The position numbers and the translations under genes are program-made. Shown here piece after piece: positions 1 to 23,942 of a stretch of 32,000 nucleotides of DNA (position 1 is the first letter of the stretch; every line of letters begins with the position of its first letter). The DNA comes from Promethearchaeota archaeon (GTDB lineage Archaea > Asgardarchaeota > Lokiarchaeia > Sigyniarchaeales > Promethearchaeaceae). The stretch is taken from positions 30,001 to 62,000 of the forward strand of contig JAFGBS010000014.1 of assembly GCA_016933055.1 (NCBI GenBank). The letters run 5' to 3'. The notes under the pieces were generated by a model. It made no database searches, was not told the origin of the DNA, and was given only the letters and a program-made list of their open reading frames with translations.

Positions 1-257
1 GTCAATTCTGGGTTAGTGGCTTTAATTGCCATGGCAACAGCTAAGGGGCGACCATGTAATCCATTAAACATATGTCCTTTCATATATTGAGGTAGTTTAG
101 CAGCTTGTCCGATTCCCGATACAAAAACTGTTTCTTCTGGAGTTATTCCCAGTTCTGTTAAGGCTTCTTTCAATGTTTTATGCAAAGTGAAGTTACCACA
201 ACCTGGACACCAAGCGATCTCTTCGGTGTTGTAATCAAAAGGATTTCCCATTATCAT
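1..257 (-). CDS. 2-oxoacid:ferredoxin oxidoreductase beta subunit (5' part, runs off the window edge)
   Basis: Not in the ORF track. Manual translation of the minus strand gives MIMGNPFDYNTEEIAWCPGCGNFTLHKTLKEAL...VSGIGQAAKLPQYMKGHMFNGLHGRPLAVAMAIKATNPEL. WCPGCG, SGIG and HGR are OFOR-beta motifs. The ATG at 257 overlaps the alpha stop (ATGA). An alternative ATG at 251 is better spaced from the GGAGG at 261-265. Confidence 0.93.
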   Translation of the reverse strand, partial: MIMGNPFDYNTEEIAWCPGCGNFTLHKTLKEALTELGITPEETVFVSGIGQAAKLPQYMKGHMFNGLHGRPLAVAMAIKATNPEL

Positions 258-13631: not shown

Positions 13632-14426
13632 ATGGCGAAGAAGAAATCCTCCACGGAAATGGACACGAAAAAAGAAACTATGGAAGAAAAACAAGTAGAT
13701 TCTGAAATACAAGAAAAAGAAGAGGAATTAAAACCTGAGAAACTTGACGAAGCGTTAGATGCAAGTGAACCCGAAGAAGAAGAAGATGGAACATCAAGGG
13801 ATGAAAAATCCAAAAAGAAGAGCACAGAAATTAAACTGTTCAACCGTTGGAGTTTTGAATCATTAGAAGTTCCAGATCCAAGTTTAGAGAGGTATATTAA
13901 TCTTAACCCCGTTATTATTCCTCATTCTGGAGGAAAACACGAACATAAGAGATTTTGGAAAACCCTTCATGTATCTTTTGTAGAACGATTCATTAATAAA
14001 ATTCTTGCACCTGGTCTTGTTCGACGACGCATCAAAGGAAGAGGATCAGCATGGAATGCAGGAAAGAAACAGAAAATCTTAGGAATTATTCAGAATGCAT
14101 TTACAATTATTGAACAAAAAACCGGAGATAATCCCCTCCAAGTACTCATTGATGCAATTGTTAATGCAGCGCCTCGAGAGGAGACGACAAAGATATCTTT
14201 AGGTGGAATATCCTACCAAACAGCAGTTGATATCGCACCACAACGACGAGTAGATCTAGCAATTCGTTTATTAGTCCAAGGAGCTGTGGGACAAACATAT
14301 AATTCCCTCAAAACAATCGATGAATGCATAGCAAACGAAATTATATATGCTGCACGTAATGATCAAAACTCTCGAGCGATTAAACGAAAGGACGAAATGG
14401 AAAGAATAGCCATTTCTGCAAGATAG
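13632..14426 (+). CDS. rps7: 30S ribosomal protein S7 (uS7) with acidic N-terminal extension
   Basis: IKLFNRWS, NPLQVLIDAIVNAAPREE, AVDIAPQRRVDLAIR, and KRKDEMERIAISAR. Confidence 0.96.
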   Translation: MAKKKSSTEMDTKKETMEEKQVDSEIQEKEEELKPEKLDEALDASEPEEEEDGTSRDEKSKKKSTEIKLFNRWSFESLEVPDPSLERYINLNPVIIPHSGGKHEHKRFWKTLHVSFVERFINKILAPGLVRRRIKGRGSAWNAGKKQKILGIIQNAFTIIEQKTGDNPLQVLIDAIVNAAPREETTKISLGGISYQTAVDIAPQRRVDLAIRLLVQGAVGQTYNSLKTIDECIANEIIYAARNDQNSRAIKRKDEMERIAISAR

Positions 14427-14451: not shown

Positions 14452-15006
14452 TTATTGGGCTGTTACAATCCCAGAACTGGTTAGAATTAATTCCTTTTTT
14501 GTTTGAGATAATATAATATCCCGCATTGCTTCCATATTAGACCTTTTAATCGCTATCATACCATAAGTCTTTACGCCTAAACGTTTAGAGACCTCTTCCG
14601 GAGTGAGACTACCGACCAAATCTTGCTTATTTGCAATAGCGATGATCTCGCTACCCAATTTTTTTCCGTATTTCTCTAGCATGGTTTTGGTTTCATTAAC
14701 ATTTTTTTCCGATGAATCTGTCACAACAACTGTTAGTCCAGAACCTTTGATCCATTCATCCCACAAAAACTGGAAACGTTTTTGACCCCCAAAATCCCAG
14801 ACCATCACTGATATGGTATTATTTTCGCATTCTTCGAAGTCAATTTTTTCAACATCTACGCCAATAGTTGGGATCCGCTGAATTTGTATTTCCTTTCCTT
14901 GAAGAAGGCGTAGTAATGATGTTTTCCCGACTCCCCCTTCACCGATAAAAATACATTTTGAACCGTTATCGATCATCGTTGACCACAATGTCTTGTAGTG
15001 AGTCAA
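14452..15006 (-). CDS. Small Ras-superfamily GTPase, Arf-like
   Basis: G1 GEGGVGKT, G2 PTIG, G3 WDFGGQ, RFQFLWDEW, and G4 ANKQDL, the Arf-type context. G5 is degenerate (GMIAI). The start is uncertain (TTG 15006 or ATG 14976). Confidence 0.85.
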   Translation of the reverse strand: MTHYKTLWSTMIDNGSKCIFIGEGGVGKTSLLRLLQGKEIQIQRIPTIGVDVEKIDFEECENNTISVMVWDFGGQKRFQFLWDEWIKGSGLTVVVTDSSEKNVNETKTMLEKYGKKLGSEIIAIANKQDLVGSLTPEEVSKRLGVKTYGMIAIKRSNMEAMRDIILSQTKKELILTSSGIVTAQ

Positions 15007-15070
15007 GGGAAAAATAGACGTAAATGGATTTATTTGAGGGTATTATCTAAATAATACAGCACAATATCAC

Positions 15071-16948
15071 TCATTTGTTTTTTTTTTTACTTGCTTTGCG
15101 TATTAATTCTTTAAATACCTGTATTTGTTTTTCTTCCTCGGGTATTTCTACATTTGTCCTATATTCCTCTTCAGTTAGGTGTTGTTCACGTTTTTGTTCC
15201 TCTTTTTGTTTTACCACTCCTGAAATCATCTTAGATATATTCTGGAGCTCTTGAAGTTCTTGTTGCTTACGGAAATCTTCAGCTTGTTTCTGCGCTTTTT
15301 GTTGCTGCTTTTCTTGCTGTTGGACTAGTTGCTTTAATTGCAAATCAGAAAGTTGTTGGTTTTTCAACTTAAGAATTTTCTCAATTTCTTCTTCCATATA
15401 CGGAATCTGTTCAAACCATTTTAGAGTTTTAAATTTTTCAATAGCTTCCTCGTAGGCACGAATAGCACTGTCAAATTCTAAATTCTTTTCATATTTTTTG
15501 GCTTCATCTAAATATTTAAATGCTGTATTCTCAATTGATTGAATAGATTGTTGCTGTTCTTGGAATTTAAGGAGACTGGCTTTTTGAGACTCCTTTTCAA
15601 TATCAAATTCTTTCATGTAATTTATAATTCGGGATAAAAAATCCTCCAATAATGAAATAGCATGATTTTTAATATGTTCTAAAGTTTCGATTCTTTGTTT
15701 ACGTATGTCTAAATTTTTATACAAAATGTCTATGATAGATTGTACTTTCGATTTTTCCTCCGACCATTGCGATTTTTCTATCAAATGATGGGCAACTTTA
15801 TACAACTCAATTTTTCGTTTGGATGACGGTTCATCTGTACCTTCGATTTGGGAAGCATCAGTTATAGTTTCAAATACTTGTTGTTCGTAAGATTTCGTTT
15901 TAGGTTGCAGAGAAGAAGATTCTGTTGAATGGAAGGGTTTACCTTTCTCATTTTCTTTCTCCAATATTTTTTCCTTAAAATATTTACGGATGTCATCACT
16001 AAGACGAATTTTTTCGATATACGCAAGATGCTCTTGCTGTTCCATTAATTCATGCTGAAATTGATTTTCCCTAACCGTAGAAATTATTTCGGTTAATCGA
16101 GATACTCCATCCTGCCATCCTACATTGATAAGATTTTGTGCAGCTTGTTGCAAAATTTGGTAGATAGAGGCATAATTGAGATTATCAATTGCTACTTCAC
16201 ATTCTCGAATAAGCTGGGATCCCCTAATTAAATAGTTATATTGGTTTTTTTTACGCTCATCGAACTCCTTAATACTAATCTTCCGAGACTCAATTTCTTT
16301 TTGGAGAGTTTCTCGACTTTTTCGAAACACATCAAAATCCTCTAATTCTGGTTGAACTATCTGCTTTTGGAGAGATATGTTATAATTCTTTAAGTCTTGA
16401 ACCCATTGATCTATCTGTTCTCGTATTCGTGGAGTATATGATTGCCATCCAATAGAATTCAGCAAAATTATCGCTTGATTATAATTTTTTATTGCTTGTT
16501 CAAAGTTTTTTTGGTTGGCAAGAGTAACTCCCGCATCCATTAAATCAAAGGCTTCTCTCTGGATATTTTCTTCATGCTGTTTGTGCAATTCAAATTCTTT
16601 GAGACTTTGATTTTGGGTGCGATATAACCTTCGGGGGGTTTCTAACTGGGATTTTTCTTCAACAACCGTTGTATCTTCACTTTTTATTGGGATACTTATC
16701 TCTTCAGTGATCGATTCCCGTAATTCTTGGATTACTTCCTGAATTTTTTTAGTGATATTTGTCCATCGCAATTCATTTAAAATATCAATTAATTCCAAAT
16801 ATATCGTAATTGCTTCCTCTTTCTTATCTTCGTTAACAAGAGATTCGGCTTGTTGCAACATCAAAAATGCTTTGTCTTGCAGTTCCCGTACATCACTTTT
16901 ACGTTTTTGTACATCGTCCTTAAATTCCATGGAATTCACTTCTATCAA
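15071..16948 (-). CDS. All-helical repeat protein: five TPR/MIT-like units about 110 aa apart plus a C-terminal coiled coil
   Basis: Recurring AFxxLxxA...F/YxxAIxxYxxAIxxL...W units with Trp at aa 62, 168, 278, 395 and 511. Q/E/K-rich tail. Confidence 0.7.
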   Translation of the reverse strand: MIEVNSMEFKDDVQKRKSDVRELQDKAFLMLQQAESLVNEDKKEEAITIYLELIDILNELRWTNITKKIQEVIQELRESITEEISIPIKSEDTTVVEEKSQLETPRRLYRTQNQSLKEFELHKQHEENIQREAFDLMDAGVTLANQKNFEQAIKNYNQAIILLNSIGWQSYTPRIREQIDQWVQDLKNYNISLQKQIVQPELEDFDVFRKSRETLQKEIESRKISIKEFDERKKNQYNYLIRGSQLIRECEVAIDNLNYASIYQILQQAAQNLINVGWQDGVSRLTEIISTVRENQFQHELMEQQEHLAYIEKIRLSDDIRKYFKEKILEKENEKGKPFHSTESSSLQPKTKSYEQQVFETITDASQIEGTDEPSSKRKIELYKVAHHLIEKSQWSEEKSKVQSIIDILYKNLDIRKQRIETLEHIKNHAISLLEDFLSRIINYMKEFDIEKESQKASLLKFQEQQQSIQSIENTAFKYLDEAKKYEKNLEFDSAIRAYEEAIEKFKTLKWFEQIPYMEEEIEKILKLKNQQLSDLQLKQLVQQQEKQQQKAQKQAEDFRKQQELQELQNISKMISGVVKQKEEQKREQHLTEEEYRTNVEIPEEEKQIQVFKELIRKASKKKNK

Positions 16949-17026
16949 GAGTATTAATGAGTAAGAAATTTAACACATAAAAATATCAAATTGGTATTGT
17001 TACAACTCATTTCGTAAATCAATTAA

Positions 17027-17920
17027 ATGTTGGTTTTTGAGATAATGCACACCATAGATTCTCTTTCGAGTTTTCTGGAAAATCAGACACAGAAAAATGC
17101 TAAATATGCATTTCTATTAGATACAGGTTTAATCATAAAAAGTACTATATCCGAAGAGAATCTTATGCAACTAGTGAAGTTCATCCCTCGTATATGTAAA
17201 GAAGTGAAACCTGGGACTTATTTACATAAATCTAAATTATATATCTATCGATTAACATCCCAATTTATTATTTTTTTGCTAACCAACAAAGAACACCAAG
17301 ATGTCGATGCGATTTTAGAAGAAGTTGCTGATCGTTATTCACTAAAAATCTCTCGAGAGTTCAACCTTCAATCTCAAGGCACTATAGGACACATAATTAA
17401 AACCATTGTGTTTTCAGTAACAACAGAAAGAGGACCCGAGTTGATGGATTGGATGGTAAATGACCACGCTGTTGGAGATAAGGATGCTTATAAAATTGCC
17501 ATGAAAACTATGCTAAATCTAACTGATGAAATTGAAGGGGCAAAAAATCGTGTACTGTTTTTTCAACCATTTCTAAGTTATAATTCCTTAGGTATCTCCT
17601 ATTTATTTCAGATCCCCTATCCTGGAGCACGAGGGGGGGCTTTTGATAGCGCTATCACAATTCTCGTCGATTTTCAGCATCGTCCTATAATATACTCTTC
17701 ATATAAAGAATTAGAAGATATTTTACAAAAATTCGAACCATTAATTGCTAAGAAATTTCAAGAGACCTATATAGAAGACGCTTGTGTGAAAAGTGATGAT
17801 TTTAATGGTATCTTAATTGACTTACACAATCGAATTAATACGATTCAGATGAAAATGGTTGATTCTGAGATATTAATGGATGAAATGTTGGACGCTATTC
17901 GAGCTTTAAACGAATTATAG
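17027..17920 (+). CDS. Roadblock/profilin-like domain fused to a uDENN/longin-like domain
   Basis: The N-terminal ~110 aa fit an alpha-beta-beta-alpha-beta-beta-beta-alpha pattern. The C-terminal domain has IVFSVTTERGPEL and LFQIPYPGARGGAFDSAITILVD, resembling longin/uDENN motifs. Fold inferred by eye. Confidence 0.55.
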   Translation: MLVFEIMHTIDSLSSFLENQTQKNAKYAFLLDTGLIIKSTISEENLMQLVKFIPRICKEVKPGTYLHKSKLYIYRLTSQFIIFLLTNKEHQDVDAILEEVADRYSLKISREFNLQSQGTIGHIIKTIVFSVTTERGPELMDWMVNDHAVGDKDAYKIAMKTMLNLTDEIEGAKNRVLFFQPFLSYNSLGISYLFQIPYPGARGGAFDSAITILVDFQHRPIIYSSYKELEDILQKFEPLIAKKFQETYIEDACVKSDDFNGILIDLHNRINTIQMKMVDSEILMDEMLDAIRALNEL

Positions 17921-17934
17921 GACTGAGGTAAAAA

Positions 17935-19893
17935 GTGAAACATATCTTAATTGTGGAACCAATATCAAAACGCATTGAGGTTAAAAGTGGTGCTAGCATT
18001 TATGATGCACTAATTGCTTTAAATTATCCGATTGGCGCGTTGTGTGGTGGAAAGGGAACTTGTGGAAAATGTAAAATCTTATGTGTTAAAAATCAAGAAA
18101 ATTTGTCCCCCCTAAACGTAATTGAGAAAAATTTATTGACTCCCGAGGAACAAAAAAATAATATACGACTAGCATGTCAATCTTTCATTTTTGGGGATAC
18201 TCGCATCTCTTTATTAGAAGGATTAATCTCTCATGGGAATAAAATTCTGATTGATAGCGATTTGCTTGCAGTTAGAGGTAATATCCAAGAGAAATTTGAT
18301 CCATTCATCAAATTAATGCATCTAAAAATTCCTCTTCCTACTTTGCATAACAATGGGGATGATTTATACCGTATGACCTCAATTATTCGAAAATCTTTTC
18401 CTGAACGGGTTTTGCATTTGTCCCCAATTATGATAGATAATGATCTTTATACGATCACAAGATCGATGTCCACTAAAATTCGATCTAAGGAAGGCAAAAT
18501 TACATTATATTATTGGTTAAAGGATGAAACTCTCGAAATCCTTGATGTTGAAGAAGGTTATAATAAGAAATTATATGGTATTGCAATTGATTTGGGTACC
18601 ACTACTATTGTAGGATATTTAATAAATTTACTTTCAGGGGATATTGTATCAATATCCTCGATGTTAAACCCTCAAGTAAGTATTGGAGAAGATTTGATAA
18701 CCAGAATAAGTTATATTTGTCAAAATGAAGCCAAACATACAGCACAAACATTACTGATTTCTGCGTTAAATCAGATCCTTACAGATACCTGTGAGAAAGC
18801 AAAAGTTTCCAAACTAGATGTAAAGGAATTAGTTGTTGTAGGCAACACGGGCATGCATCACATGTTATATGGTCTCAATTCAGAACAATTGGCTCGTACA
18901 CCCTTTGTCCCTGTATTTAAAGCCCCAATTTATATCAATTCAGCACAATTGGGGATTCAAGCTTCTCCACAAGGGCGTTTATATAGCCCCCCAGTTGTTG
19001 CTGGATTTGTAGGTACAGACACGATTGGGTGTATAGTATCATCCCGAATTGATACCTACGAAAAATTTAGCTTGTTAATTGATATTGGTACAAACGGAGA
19101 ATTAGTTATGGGAAATCGAAAGGGGCTGATTACGGGTTCATGCGCTGCAGGATCTGCTTTAGAGGGAGCTCACATTTCATTAGGAATGCGAGCAGCAGAA
19201 GGTGCTATTGAATCTCTTACAATTGATCCAAAATCTTTTCACTGCACTATTAATACTATCGGAAATCTCAAACCAATTGGTATGTGCGGCTCAGGGTTGA
19301 TTGATTTAATTGCCGAAATGATAAAATGCAAAATAATAACTCGAAACGGAAATTTTAACGTCCATAATCTTCCAGAACGAGTATTATATTCTTCAAATGG
19401 AGATTTAAATTATATCATTTATGATTCTGAAAAAGACGGAATCTATTTTGAGGATGACCGAAAAAAATTCACTATTGGGATATCTCAAAAAGACATCCGA
19501 CAACTACAATTAGCGAAAGGTGCATTTCTCTCAGGTGCTTATTTACTCAATAAACAGTATCCTTCCGAAAATTTAGAACAGATTTTACTTGCAGGAGCAT
19601 TTGGAAGTTATATTGATAAAGAAAATGCAAGGATTATCGGATTATTTCCAGAAATAACACCCACCAAAATTTATCAAATCGGAAACGCTGCTGGATTAGG
19701 AGCACAAATTTGCTTGAAAGATCAAAATATGAGAAAATTTGCTAATGAGATTGCCAATAAAGTGGAATATTTCGAAATTGCTTCATCCAAAGATTTTCAG
19801 AAGGAATTTGCATTAAGTATGTATTTTCCCCATTATGAATTACACCGATTCCCATCATTAAGAACTATTTATCAAGACCTCCCAATCCGATAA
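17935..19893 (+). CDS. ASKHA-domain reductive activator of corrinoid proteins (RACo/DUF4445 type) with N-terminal 2Fe-2S ferredoxin
   Basis: CGGKGTCGKC...RLACQ 2Fe-2S motif, AIDLGTTT, VGNTGM, GFVGTD, LLIDIGTNGE, GMCGSG, LAGAFGSY, and GNAAGLGA. Confidence 0.9.
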   Translation: MKHILIVEPISKRIEVKSGASIYDALIALNYPIGALCGGKGTCGKCKILCVKNQENLSPLNVIEKNLLTPEEQKNNIRLACQSFIFGDTRISLLEGLISHGNKILIDSDLLAVRGNIQEKFDPFIKLMHLKIPLPTLHNNGDDLYRMTSIIRKSFPERVLHLSPIMIDNDLYTITRSMSTKIRSKEGKITLYYWLKDETLEILDVEEGYNKKLYGIAIDLGTTTIVGYLINLLSGDIVSISSMLNPQVSIGEDLITRISYICQNEAKHTAQTLLISALNQILTDTCEKAKVSKLDVKELVVVGNTGMHHMLYGLNSEQLARTPFVPVFKAPIYINSAQLGIQASPQGRLYSPPVVAGFVGTDTIGCIVSSRIDTYEKFSLLIDIGTNGELVMGNRKGLITGSCAAGSALEGAHISLGMRAAEGAIESLTIDPKSFHCTINTIGNLKPIGMCGSGLIDLIAEMIKCKIITRNGNFNVHNLPERVLYSSNGDLNYIIYDSEKDGIYFEDDRKKFTIGISQKDIRQLQLAKGAFLSGAYLLNKQYPSENLEQILLAGAFGSYIDKENARIIGLFPEITPTKIYQIGNAAGLGAQICLKDQNMRKFANEIANKVEYFEIASSKDFQKEFALSMYFPHYELHRFPSLRTIYQDLPIR

Positions 19894-19929
19894 AAAAACA
19901 TTAAAAGCAAATACGAATAGCTCTTAAAA

Positions 19930-21120
19930 ATGGACAAAGTAGGATTCATTTATACTGAAGATTATTATAAATATAATTTCGGGAAACATCATCCTTTACA
20001 ACCAGTTCGTTTAGAATTAACTTATAAATTAATGGAATCCTATGGACTTTTGAATAATTCGCGATTAGAAATAAGGAAACCCAAAATAGCAACACGAGAA
20101 GAACTATATTTAATCCACGATAAGGAATACGTGGATGCAGTAAAAAAATATAGTGATAATCCCCAACAAATAGTTGGAGAACGACCTAATAGCACTTTTG
20201 GGATGGGGTCTATGGATAATCCGGTTTTCCCCGGTATGTTTGAAGCCTCCTCTATGGCAGTAGGAGCAAGTATTACTGCAGCAGAAATAGTCATGGAAGA
20301 AGAAAATGAAATTAGTACCGCTTTCAATATTGCGGGTGGATTACATCATGCAATGCGTAATTTAGCCCATGGTTTTTGTATTTTTAATGATGTCTCCATT
20401 GCCATACAGAAAATACGTGTAAAATATCCCGATCTTAAAGTGATGTATTTGGACGTAGACGCTCATCATGGGGATGGGGTGCAAGCGGCTTTTTATGATG
20501 ATCCTGAAGTATTGACACTTTCAATTCACCAAGATGGACATACTTTATTCCCTGGGACAGGATTTATGGAAGAAAGAGGAAGAAATCGAGGAAAGGGATA
20601 CTCGATAAATTTTCCCTTATATCCAGGAACTTACGATAGTGCATACATCGATTTATTTCGAACTCAAGTTCCTTCTATTATGAAAAGATTCCAACCAGAT
20701 GTTCTATTTACTCAATTAGGTGTGGATACATATTTTGCAGATCCCCTCACTCAATTAGGATTATCGACTTCGGGACATTATAAAATTTTCAATCTACTGA
20801 AGGAGTATTCCCAGAATTATGCCAAAGGGAGATGGATTGCAATGGGTGGAGGCGGTTATTTAATGGGCGCTGTACCACGCAGCTGGACTCTTGCATTGTC
20901 CGTAATGCTGGAAGAGGAACTTCCAAATGCTATTCCATTAGAATGGATTACTTTTTTTGAACAAAAACACATTGATGAGCCCACTCCTTACGAATTAAGA
21001 GACATGAATTATCGTGTCGAGGAACAGATTCTTAAAAACCCCATGTTCTCAGTTCGAATCGAAGAACGCATAGATGCAATTGAAAAATATGTAGTAGACG
21101 AAGTTTTACCAAATCTTTAG
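19930..21120 (+). CDS. Histone deacetylase family (AcuC-like) Zn-dependent deacetylase
   Basis: HPLQPVR, AGGLHHA, GFCIFND, DVDAHHGDG, QLGVD and GGGGY. The catalytic residues are intact. Confidence 0.93.
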   Translation: MDKVGFIYTEDYYKYNFGKHHPLQPVRLELTYKLMESYGLLNNSRLEIRKPKIATREELYLIHDKEYVDAVKKYSDNPQQIVGERPNSTFGMGSMDNPVFPGMFEASSMAVGASITAAEIVMEEENEISTAFNIAGGLHHAMRNLAHGFCIFNDVSIAIQKIRVKYPDLKVMYLDVDAHHGDGVQAAFYDDPEVLTLSIHQDGHTLFPGTGFMEERGRNRGKGYSINFPLYPGTYDSAYIDLFRTQVPSIMKRFQPDVLFTQLGVDTYFADPLTQLGLSTSGHYKIFNLLKEYSQNYAKGRWIAMGGGGYLMGAVPRSWTLALSVMLEEELPNAIPLEWITFFEQKHIDEPTPYELRDMNYRVEEQILKNPMFSVRIEERIDAIEKYVVDEVLPNL

Positions 21121-21266
21121 GATAAACAATTTAGGAATAGCAATCAAAATTAAAATAAGAAGCAATTATAACTAAACAAATAAATTTAACCAACTATCAA
21201 CATAAATATATTAAATAAAAAAGACTAACCAAATATTAAGCAGAGTTCAACTGGTGTAAAAAAAGT

Positions 21267-21785
21267 ATGACAAGTAGTTACAAGCTTAAAGTGCTCCTTT
21301 GCGGTCCAGCTGGAGTTGGCAAGACGAGTCTAATCATGCGATTCATCAAATCAAAATTCCAAACCGATTACAAACTCACTGTGGGAGTCGATATCTTGAC
21401 AAAAGACGTTGAATTACCAAATGATCAGATATGTACACTCAGTATTTGGGACATCGGAGGGCAAGAGCGTTTCTCATTTATCCGAAGTACTTTTTATAAG
21501 GGCGCAGCAGGGGCATTACTGGTGTTTGATTTGAGTCGTGCAGCTACTTGGGATGAAATAAAAAATTGGAGAGCAGAAGTTAAACAATTTGCGGGTGATA
21601 TTCCTTTCGTACTAATTGGAAACAAATTAGATCTATTAGCGGATGTAGGTGAGGTAATCGATCGAGATGAAGCTCGTGCGTATGCGGAAAGTCAAGGCTC
21701 AGTTTATATTGAAACCTCCGCAAAAGATAATACTAATGTAGATGAGGCATTCCTTACCTTAACTAAGAGAATTGTAATTGGTTAG
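21267..21785 (+). CDS. Small Rab-like GTPase
   Basis: GPAGVGKTS, TVGVD, IWDIGGQERF, FYKGAAGALLVFDL, GNKLDL and ETSAK. No C-terminal Cys prenylation motif. Confidence 0.93.
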   Translation: MTSSYKLKVLLCGPAGVGKTSLIMRFIKSKFQTDYKLTVGVDILTKDVELPNDQICTLSIWDIGGQERFSFIRSTFYKGAAGALLVFDLSRAATWDEIKNWRAEVKQFAGDIPFVLIGNKLDLLADVGEVIDRDEARAYAESQGSVYIETSAKDNTNVDEAFLTLTKRIVIG

Positions 21786-23318: not shown

Positions 23319-23804
23319 TTATTTATTATTTTTTAGAAAGGAATTAAGGTCCGTGGAATCCCCATCGCGCTTTTTCACCGTAATTTTTGGACCAATCCCT
23401 AAAATTTTACGTTCTAATTGTTGAATTTGAATTAAATCTAATATATTTGCACGTAACATCCCTTGAGCTCGATAGGTCAATAATACATCAATCTGCTGCA
23501 AAATATCTGGAGGAAGAATAAACTGAAGAATTCGGTGATATAATGCCTTATCCTTGGTTTGAATTTCTTTATAATATCGGAATGCATCAGGTGTCATGAT
23601 AGTTTCTAAAATTACGTCTATTTTATCTTGTAACGAGGGGACGGCGGAAGCACGTTGAGAATTTTGCTGCTGACGTAAAAGGGATTCCATTCTTTTCAAA
23701 CGCAGTTTTTCTAATTCATGATCAACTTCTATATTTTCTTTGTTATTAAATTGGTTTTGATCAGGTTTCTTGGAATTACCAGAATCGTCTTCAGAATCAG
23801 TCAT
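23319..23804 (-). CDS. PDCD5-like (archaeal DNA-binding, programmed cell death 5 family) protein
   Basis: DHELEKLRLKRMESL...ILETIMTPDAF...GPKITVKKR follows the PDCD5 pattern (ELExIRxRR; ILxxILTPEA; basic C-terminal IxRR). The ATG at 23804 is preferred over the track start at 23876. Confidence 0.6.
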   Translation of the reverse strand: MTDSEDDSGNSKKPDQNQFNNKENIEVDHELEKLRLKRMESLLRQQQNSQRASAVPSLQDKIDVILETIMTPDAFRYYKEIQTKDKALYHRILQFILPPDILQQIDVLLTYRAQGMLRANILDLIQIQQLERKILGIGPKITVKKRDGDSTDLNSFLKNNK

Positions 23805-23942
23805 TTGATTGAGAATATGGAGCATCCTTATAAATTGTTTGCAACTTTGAGTAAAAAAAGTGTGACAAAATGCCAATACTTAATTATAGGTTGATAAGGA
23901 TATTTTGAGAAGGTGCAACAGAATTAATCTATAAACCATATT

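Follow-up and report, generated by a model that had tools for sequence, protein, structure and literature searches.

In the window, a stretch of 32,000 nucleotides from the genome of a Promethearchaeota archaeon (contig JAFGBS010000014.1, positions 30,001 to 62,000), a gene for a two-domain Roadblock and longin protein, here named RBLG, stands next to the gene of a helical repeat protein and close to that of a Rab-like small GTPase (Table 1). These three genes form the conserved unit of the locus, often with a gene for a RACo-like ATPase between RBLG and the GTPase. On its sequence hallmarks and modelled fold, the longin domain of RBLG is a member of the class found in GTPase-activating proteins (GAPs). 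Conserved gene order, motif conservation, natural gene fusions and a predicted complex lead us to propose, with a probability of roughly 55%, that RBLG acts as a homodimer and a GAP of the longin type on the Rab-like GTPase and works with the repeat protein as a multivalent helical scaffold.

RBLG alone matches no Pfam or NCBIfam family and was recognised through a profile of its family and through its fold. The family is small, comprising 13 clusters in a word-indexed search and 42 representatives in an exhaustive search, and its members are 270-300 aa long; in the genome of the window (G000), full-length RBLG is single-copy. Compared with the PDB, the family profile retrieves 8YQK/8YQL ("Roadblock domain", E 5.6e-26) and 8YQG ("Longin domain", E 7.6e-54), all three titled "Lokiarchaeota archaeon Roadblock-Longin protein" and released in March 2025. 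An AlphaFold2 (AF2) model of RBLG (predicted local distance difference test score, pLDDT, 82) superimposes on 8yqg_B with Z 22.5 and a root mean square deviation (rmsd) of 1.9 over 154 aligned residues, and on 8yql_C with Z 19.1 and an rmsd of 1.3 over 105 aligned residues. RBLG is the ortholog of this crystallised protein, which comes from Candidatus Prometheoarchaeum syntrophicum MK-D1 and likewise carries Roadblock and longin domains in one chain. The protein class is thus already recognised by structural biologists, and our literature search found no paper on the MK-D1 protein.

Both domains have informative structural relatives. The Roadblock domain (model 1..105) resembles MglB (6hjm_E; Z 12.1, rmsd 2.4, 103 aligned residues), MK-D1 Roadblock3 (9jue_B; Z 11.5) and the Rag C-terminal and LAMTOR roadblock domains (Z about 10-11). 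The longin domain matches the Lst4 longin (4zy8_D; Z 14.2, rmsd 2.8, 138 aligned residues), C9orf72-SMCR8 (7o2w_A; Z 12.4), the FLCN GAP complex (8dhb_J; Z 12.1) and GATOR1 (8fw5_C; Z 11.4), with SNARE longins following at a small margin (Ykt6, Z 11.3; VAMP7, Z 10.8). In agreement, the structural neighbours of RBLG in the Atlas include Folliculin-bearing Heimdall proteins, C9orf72, SMCR8 and NPRL2, and 11 of 30 family members weakly match the Pfam Folliculin family (PF11704; best E 2.2e-4). No Pfam DENN or NPR2 match was found in RBLG, whose chain stops about 20 residues past the longin helices. A sequence-only reading of this DNA had called the 17027 protein "Roadblock/longin-like"; the label was right, and profile and fold now specify it as the FLCN/SMCR8/NPRL class.

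A GP motif next to an arginine finger is common to FLCN, NPRL2, SMCR8 and C9orf72; this signature is absent from non-GAP longins, including those in GEFs (guanine nucleotide exchange factors), and present in a class of Asgard longins (PMC12290439). RBLG carries the GP motif and a candidate for the finger. Its Gly130-Pro131 (numbered on the 291-aa protein, as are all RBLG residues below) lies between the strands 118-127 and 130-138 assigned by DSSP on the model, and Arg196 sits in an ARGG loop. Only seven positions are invariant in the alignment of 30 family representatives, among them Gly130-Pro131 and Arg196. In a second alignment, of 16 module-linked members, the GP is invariant in all 16 and the Arg is kept in 14, giving 44 of 46 sequences with the Arg over both alignments. 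By its invariant GP and near-invariant Arg, the RBLG longin is a GAP-class longin at the level of sequence and modelled fold. The Arg is absent from MK-D1, the source of the crystallised protein, and from its genus-mate G140, and is kept in a third genus-mate (G141) and in Candidatus Lokiarchaeum ossiferum; P-E-K and K-G-K replace the Arg of the ARGG loop in MK-D1 (L048:9007-9813) and G140 (L047:4963-5769).

The gene neighbourhood was surveyed by searching 400 genomes of the phylum for RBLG; around 20 hits, flanks of at most 9 kb in either direction were annotated with the window proteins, Pfam and tblastn. Absences from the annotation of open reading frames (ORFs) in these flanks are soft, as the ORF caller missed two Rab-like genes that tblastn found. 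About 20 genomes, spread over four families of a single order, carry full-length RBLG. More distant paralogs also exist; those of families f5-f7 (E 1e-8 to 1e-16), which have other neighbours, were excluded from the synteny count, and three short contigs (L009, L014, L017) lay outside the analysis. Close relatives (L001-L003 and G131; RBLG 65-69% identical) keep the whole 17-kb gene order, which says little about function. The informative loci are those in which RBLG is only 27-45% identical.

At these divergent loci, the repeat protein is the immediate neighbour of RBLG in G169, G149, G130, G133, G141, G137, G142, G280 and L004, mostly in divergent orientation; in G279 a single gene separates the two, and in L005 the distance is about 4 kb. 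The pairing spans about nine genera within one order and reaches well past close relatives. A Rab-like ortholog is found within 5 kb of RBLG in G137, G140, G141, G142, G149, G169, G280, G282, L004 and L005, covering no fewer than seven genera and two metagenome contigs. Among the divergent genomes, the flanks, the orientations and the genes inserted all vary; the trio of repeat protein, RBLG and Rab-like GTPase stays together. In G000, which has about 41 small GTPases, RBLG, a repeat protein of this kind and the RACo homolog each occur once, and six-frame Pfam MIT matches in this and five other genomes come from Vps4, the protein encoded beside RBLG and one or two more. Chance adjacency would be expected at about 1e-3 per genome, a rough estimate for one ortholog among some 41 GTPases, or for 1-3 non-Vps4 MIT-type genes, in a 4-Mb genome. 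The sequence-only reading had proposed a co-regulated unit of an Arf-like GTPase, a regulator and a scaffold, to be checked by synteny across Lokiarchaeia. The survey bears out the pairing of regulator and repeat protein and the membership of a small GTPase; the conserved GTPase is, however, the Rab-like one, which that reading had noted only for its position about 3.3 kb further on, and the Arf-like gene is adjacent only in the window's own genus-level group. The RACo-like gene went unmentioned in that reading. Our literature search on Asgard MIT and longin proteins did not turn up this module. No RNA record was listed for the stretch, two metatranscriptome runs from the source study gave no contig over it and a second DNA run gave short pieces only, and these data are uninformative on expression.

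Both cultured species carry the module: Ca. L. ossiferum (G137; NEF87_004396, NEF87_004397), with the Arg kept, and MK-D1 (G142; DSAG12_01965), with the Arg lost. In MK-D1, the Rab-like ortholog lies 4 kb from RBLG, with two inserted genes between.

The Rab-like GTPase matches Pfam Ras (165.8 bits, 8e-49), with Rab11A (E 4e-38) and a Thorarchaeota Rab (E 4.5e-36) as its closest solved relatives. Its orthologs near RBLG are 58-80% identical to the window protein, and all eight RBLG-linked orthologs that we tested had this protein as their best match among the G000 small GTPases; one close paralog in G000 (282 bits) is inseparable from the orthologs by score. The GxxxxGKT, DxxGQ, NKxD and SAK motifs are invariant in 11 orthologs, and the catalytic Gln is intact. 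The tail lacks any Cys and hence a C-terminal prenylation motif, as expected for an archaeal Rab-like protein. Gene order, natural fusions and modelling mark this protein as the GTPase that is conserved in the module and that RBLG is predicted to serve. Its G3 motif reads D-I-G-G-Q, with the third-position Gly invariant in 11 of 11 orthologs; a typical Rab has D-T-A-G-Q. Gly at the third position of G3 (DxxG) has been listed as an Arf-family trait (PMC11914678).

Gene fusions also connect longins of this type with small GTPases. In P0059 (341 aa, found on ten contigs), a longin of the RBLG type (hhalign probability 98.8%, E 4.6e-17 against the RBLG family; GP and Arg kept) is fused to a Ras/Rab-type GTPase domain (Pfam Ras 7e-38) that is 32% identical to the window Rab-like protein. 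An archaeal cluster of 274 such 341-aa proteins is a structural neighbour of RBLG in the Atlas. A second fusion is encoded in G000 itself on contig C11 (L007:1543-2907), where a 454-aa protein has an N-terminal longin (RBLG profile, E 1.4e-9) and, at residues 162-317, a GTPase domain of Arf-like type (Pfam Arf 7.9e-9). Two further fusion candidates were rejected: the extra part of P0053 (621 aa) has no Pfam domain, and P0058 proved to be an unrelated low-complexity match. At the P0059 locus L061:5001-6681 (and in L062), the next gene encodes a YdjM-family membrane protein, and a YdjM gene also lies between repeat protein and RBLG in G279 (L041:8098-8862). Directly before the longin and Arf-like fusion of L007 (398-2907) stands a gene for a zinc-ribbon and Roadblock/LC7 protein, and proteins of about 470-500 aa with an L007-type longin occur in most genomes of the neighbouring family f3.

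We further predicted the structure of a complex of two RBLG chains (30-row alignment) and the Rab-like GTPase (11-row alignment) with GTP and Mg. The complex scored 0.62 (runs 0.61-0.63), compared with 0.01 for the best of 3 controls. Among solved complexes, 58 of 80 attain this mark, and among mismatched pairs 2 of 110, a calibration that is rough here because the alignments were our own and ligands were included. Between runs, at least 94% of contacts coincide, with partner pLDDT of at least 87. The interface comprises RBLG residues 126, 128-132, 146-165, 196-198 and 201 and GTPase residues 34-45 and 66-79. Both longin domains are predicted to touch the GTPase, whose side of the interface is made up of switch I (34-45), Gln66 and switch II (66-79). 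Among the pairs with the lowest predicted error are Gly130/Pro131 with Gln66 and Arg196 with residues 36-37; within switch I, residues 36-37 and 39 are met by RBLG 196-198 together with Asp201. This predicted geometry is the one expected of a GAP of the FLCN/SMCR8 type.

These observations suggest the following mechanism. RBLG would dimerise through its longin domains, as predicted here and as indicated by the title of the MK-D1 ortholog structure 8YQG ("Dimeric structure of the Longin domain"). The two longin domains would form a pocket from both Gly130-Pro131 motifs and Arg196 of one protomer. In the model, the pocket receives the Rab-like GTPase in its GTP-bound state, at switch I, switch II and the catalytic Gln66. 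By analogy with FLCN, NPRL2 and SMCR8, Arg196 may serve as an arginine finger that speeds GTP hydrolysis. The repeat protein, presumably transcribed from a shared divergent region, could place the switch or read it out. The Arf-like gene would have been brought next to the unit by a rearrangement in one genus-level lineage.

Several points weigh against assigning a GAP function to RBLG. Solved structures of FLCN-RagC, GATOR1-RagA and C9orf72-SMCR8-Arf1 exist, and the score of the predicted complex may reflect likeness to these rather than binding. Its controls were unrelated proteins and not other small GTPases, so that the preference for the Rab-like over the Arf-like GTPase comes from synteny and fusions alone. 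Arg196 is a candidate finger, placed by its loop and conservation and not by residue-by-residue alignment to FLCN R164, SMCR8 R147 or NPRL2 R78. The loss of this Arg in MK-D1 and G140 means that catalysis cannot be general for the family, and the conserved role of RBLG in these two genomes may be non-catalytic. No Rab-like ortholog was found in the 9 kb searched on either side of RBLG in G279 and G130. The tight linkage of RBLG to the RACo-like gene is unexplained by a GAP model, and the matches that assign the repeats to MIT are partial, covering helices 1-2, for which reason we call the units MIT/TPR-like. Finally, longin pairs also act as GEFs, as in Mon1-Ccz1, TRAPP and DENN proteins, and the same switch interface would suit them.

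This last point leads to the most serious alternative, which we nevertheless consider unlikely: RBLG may regulate the Rab-like GTPase as a GEF resembling Mon1-Ccz1 or TRAPP, or as a non-catalytic platform in the manner of Ragulator or, in some settings, MglB. A contact with switch I and II cannot separate GAP from GEF; Foldseek also returns Mon1-Ccz1, Fuzzy-Inturned and BLOC-3 for RBLG (rows 7-46), the Roadblock domain resembles LAMTOR and Rag C-terminal domains, and the Arg-less orthologs of MK-D1 and G140 are still encoded beside the repeat protein. On the other side, the invariant GP and the Arg conserved in all but two sequences are features absent from non-GAP longins (PMC12290439), and RBLG superimposes better on the GAP class, over single domains (Z 11.4-14.2, rmsd about 3 A), than it does on Mon1/Ccz1 over two domains (Z 10, rmsd about 15 A). 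A functional module of Arf-like GTPase, repeat protein and RBLG, in which RBLG acts on the Arf-like GTPase alone or on both GTPases, appears improbable. It is true that the Arf-like gene follows that of the repeat protein on the same strand, after a gap of 64-94 nt, in the window and in close relatives, that the L007 fusion provides a longin joined to an Arf-like GTPase, and that C9orf72-SMCR8 is an Arf GAP (PMC12290439); however, reciprocal-best Arf-like orthologs are unlinked to RBLG in four other genomes, and the searched flanks contain no Arf-like ortholog near any divergent module locus.

We also regard it as very doubtful that RBLG works mainly with the RACo-like ATPase, for instance as a regulator or assembly factor in the reductive activation of a corrinoid protein, with the GTPase link being secondary. 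Five separate lineages have the two genes on the same strand, 7-34 nt apart, and this is the only RACo homolog in G000, where the likely substrate genes CdhD/E lie on another contig. Against such a role, three genomes keep the trio with no RACo found, two others carry RACo elsewhere, and the fold of RBLG has no feature linked to corrinoid or Fe-S chemistry. Least probable of all, and hardly credible in our view, is that the neighbourhood merely reflects inherited gene order with no functional coupling. Much local order is indeed simply inherited, as the synteny of the block from primase to glycosidase in close relatives illustrates, but the trio persists in divergent genomes despite changed flanks, orientations and insertions, fusions of longins with GTPases exist, and chance adjacency is rare. 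Within the preferred reading of RBLG as a longin GAP, a more speculative extension, which we hold to be rather improbable, is that the module is a GTPase-gated adaptor for the endosomal sorting complex required for transport (ESCRT). Under the timing of its GAP, the Rab-like GTPase would control the recruitment or release of a protein of many MIT-like units, which would bind the tails of several ESCRT-III subunits at once. As a second twist, the RACo-like redox ATPase might feed metabolic state into the switch. The only other clear MIT protein in these genomes is Vps4.

The repeat protein consists of five units of about 65 aa, spaced by about 110 aa and each with one invariant Trp after helix 2. 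Its AF2 model (pLDDT 79.6) shows five three-helix units, in which the third helix continues as a long connector, and disorder at 78-108, 190-195 and 332-343. Pfam reports MIT at 36.8 bits (cut-off 30) and TPR_2 at 28.3 bits; the MIT matches cover model positions 3-36 or 3-54 of 66, mainly helices 1-2, a segment common to TPRs. Related repeat proteins are 625-1891 aa long, with Pfam MIT scores of up to 109 bits, and the repeat profile matches consensus TPR proteins better than the MIT domain of Vps4A (E 0.013). Foldseek with the whole chain gave no match at E <= 0.001, and its Atlas rows were uninformative. As in Vps4, Vta1 and spastin MIT domains, the unit is of three helices; it differs from a classic MIT in its invariant Trp, in the number of units per chain (five to more than 15) and in its stronger TPR matches. 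Its conserved linkage to RBLG suggests that the protein is most likely a multivalent scaffold or effector.

Comparison with known systems places RBLG among the eukaryotic longin GAPs in some respects and apart from them in others. Like FLCN-FNIP, GATOR1 (NPRL2-NPRL3) and C9orf72-SMCR8-WDR41, it has a longin of the same class with the GP before strand 2 and a conserved Arg, and like them it is predicted to set a pocket of two longins on the switch regions of a GTPase. The eukaryotic GAPs are, however, longin-DENN heterodimers, whereas RBLG would be a homodimer of a 291-aa Roadblock and longin chain without the DENN domain of FLCN/FNIP/SMCR8/C9orf72 or the C-terminal domain of NPRL. Its likely client is Rab-like, rather than Rag or Arf, and it has a helical repeat protein as partner and no lysosome/mTOR context. 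The MglA-MglB system of Myxococcus and Thermus is likewise a prokaryotic pair of GTPase and regulator genes, and MglB matches the RBLG Roadblock domain. MglB lacks a longin domain and, to our knowledge, an arginine finger, and in the predicted RBLG complex the GTPase sits on the longin dimer and not on the Roadblock dimer. The tri-longin RabGEFs (Mon1-Ccz1, Fuzzy-Inturned, BLOC-3) share tandem longin/roadblock-type domains with RBLG and act on Rab, but domain order and orientation differ (rmsd 15-17 A over two domains). The MK-D1 Roadblock-Longin protein (DSAG12_01965), whose 90% cluster holds the crystallised Roadblock domain, has the same two-domain build and lies beside a repeat protein; it is about 30% identical to the window RBLG and differs in lacking the Arg of the ARGG loop.

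FLCN, GATOR1 and C9orf72-SMCR8 are longin GAPs central to eukaryotic nutrient signalling and membrane traffic. If our proposal is confirmed, a dedicated longin GAP for a Rab-like switch would predate eukaryotes. The ESCRT-adaptor extension, if true, would describe an archaeal forerunner of GTPase-controlled membrane remodelling; metabolic input through RACo, if real, would echo the nutrient-sensing roles of FLCN and GATOR1. The helical repeat protein is an unexpected added partner of the longin/Rab-like pair, and the two cultured species, with the Arg kept in one and lost in the other, provide a natural comparison of presumably active and inactive forms. A 2025 survey posed the question of which Asgard GTPases the GP/Arg longins serve (PMC12290439); gene order, natural fusions and modelling for the present locus suggest a concrete client for one Lokiarchaeial family. 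A related operon, conserved in Asgard archaea and described by Liu et al (10.1101/2020.10.19.343400), combines a LAMTOR1-like Roadblock protein, a Rab-like GTPase and a DENN protein and was proposed to regulate the GTPase. It likewise joins a Roadblock-superfamily protein, a Rab-like GTPase and a longin-related regulator, and the RBLG module differs in having Roadblock and longin in one chain, no detected DENN domain and an MIT/TPR-like repeat protein as its third gene.

The Arf-like GTPase next to the repeat protein is probably a lineage-specific neighbour rather than a core part of the module, as judged by its gene order. It scores 70.7 bits with Pfam Arf, 69.1 with Roc and 55.3 with Ras, and matches Arf1/Arf2 (about 7e-15) and Rab1 (3e-12) in the PDB. 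By published Arf criteria, G1 (GxxxxGK[ST]) has Leu-Asp as its second and third residues and G3 (DxxG) has Gly as its third (PMC11914678). The window protein lacks the Leu-Asp (G1, G-E-G-G-V-G-K-T), has the Gly (G3, D-F-G-G) and carries an Arf-like P-T-I-G in switch I. It has no N-terminal amphipathic helix, with about 7 residues before strand 1 (relatives are called at 169-171 aa), and most Asgard Arf-like proteins also lack this helix (PMC11914678). Its gene adjoins the module only in the window's genus-level group (window, G131, L001-L003). Its reciprocal-best orthologs (44-49% identity) in G169, G130, G142 and G137 are encoded on contigs other than that of RBLG or at a distance of 2.3-2.8 Mb from it, a lack of linkage that speaks against the place given to the Arf-like GTPase in the unit of the sequence-only reading. 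In G169 and G130 these orthologs are about 5 kb from GINS/primase, which belong to the left housekeeping block of the window. The simplest reading of this arrangement is that the Arf-like gene belongs to the left block and the module to the right, the two having been joined in one genus-level lineage, where the Arf-like GTPase may have been secondarily recruited to a function.

The RACo-like protein has the Fer2 (2.1e-7), linker, middle (Raco_middle, 4.2e-49) and ASKHA C-terminal (RACo_C_ter, 1.1e-80) domains all in order, with an intact [2Fe-2S] Cys pattern; NCBIfam AcsV covers its full length at 419 bits, below the cut-off of 800. The gene directly follows RBLG in the window, L001, L003, L037, L005, L039, L040 and L043, and the co-oriented, closely spaced arrangement recurs in the window group, L005, G169, G149 and G133. 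The window query did not find it in G137, G141 and G142, where the other genes of the module are kept; in G279 and G126 it is located away from RBLG. RACo is a frequent but dispensable neighbour of RBLG. In G000, CdhD/E are encoded on contig C17 and not on the RBLG contig. The joint presence of RACo and CdhD/E is mixed: G137 has CdhD/E with no RACo found, and G141 and G142 have partial matches only. The histone-deacetylase-family gene lies between RACo and the Rab-like gene only in the window, L001-L003 and L037.

The window has a GC content of about 35% and belongs to a 3.76-Mb assembly of 36 contigs that is 91% complete. The genes and orientations claimed by the sequence-only reading are present at their coordinates in the ORF list, and the distances it gave are exact for the longest ORFs, namely 64 nt (15007-15070) between the Arf-like GTPase and repeat protein, 78 nt (16949-17026) across the divergent region and about 3.3 kb (17921-21266) from RBLG to the Rab-like gene. 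The internal ATGs at 14976, 16930 and 17045 are, on sequence grounds, probably the real starts; they are likelier because the database copies and relatives are so called, and in L003 the upstream ATG is changed to ATA. Measured from the internal ATGs, the gaps are 94 nt (GTPase and repeat protein) and 114 nt (repeat protein and RBLG). The divergent intergenic region is partly conserved among four close relatives.

Table 1. Features of the module and its surroundings, in window coordinates
Feature	Position	Strand	Remark
Housekeeping block, left of the Arf-like gene			primase, GINS, L7Ae, KH protein, S12, S7
Arf-like small GTPase	14452..15006	-	184 aa longest ORF; probable ATG 14976, 174 aa
Five-repeat MIT/TPR-like helical protein	15071..16948	-	625 aa longest ORF; probable ATG 16930, 619 aa
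Repeat units	~16697-16891, 16373-16573, 16043-16243, 15695-15898, 15341-15544	-	repeat alignment
Divergent intergenic region of the repeat-protein gene and RBLG	16949..17044	.	read directly
RBLG, Roadblock + longin protein	17027..17920	+	297 aa longest ORF; probable ATG 17045, 291 aa
Roadblock domain of RBLG, residues 1-105	17045..17359	+	fold match
Longin domain of RBLG, residues 111-271	17375..17857	+	FLCN/FNIP/SMCR8/NPRL class, fold match
Gly130-Pro131 (GP motif)	17432..17437	+	turn between longin strands 1 and 2
Arg196, candidate arginine finger	17630..17632	+	ARGG loop between longin strands 4 and 5
RACo-like [2Fe-2S] + ASKHA ATPase	17935..19893	+	14 nt after RBLG; Pfam
Histone-deacetylase-family gene	19930..21120	+	Pfam Hist_deacetyl 8.7e-89
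Rab-like small GTPase	21267..21785	+	172 aa; Pfam Ras

Some minor observations concern other genes of the window and of the surveyed loci. The S7 gene (13632-14426) encodes 264 aa, of which the Pfam S7 match begins only at residue 86, and an N-terminal extension of about 85 aa is common to its relatives (259-265 aa). The 185-aa product of 23319-23876 (minus strand) has a below-cut-off match to Not3 / Not1-binding N-terminal families (E 9.6e-4), which is probably just coiled coil. In Ca. L. ossiferum (L046:13203-14171) and MK-D1 (L048:13106-14044), a D-aminoacyl-tRNA deacylase-family gene (Pfam E about 1e-47) with an N-terminal extension of about 90 aa comes after the repeat-protein gene. In L054:2973-8631 (family f4) and L004:9056-14648 (a metagenome contig), two MIT/TPR-like repeat proteins follow RBLG and bracket a protein of about 318 aa with IFT52-GIFT / ABC_transp_aux matches (Pfam E 6.7e-12, 8.4e-13).

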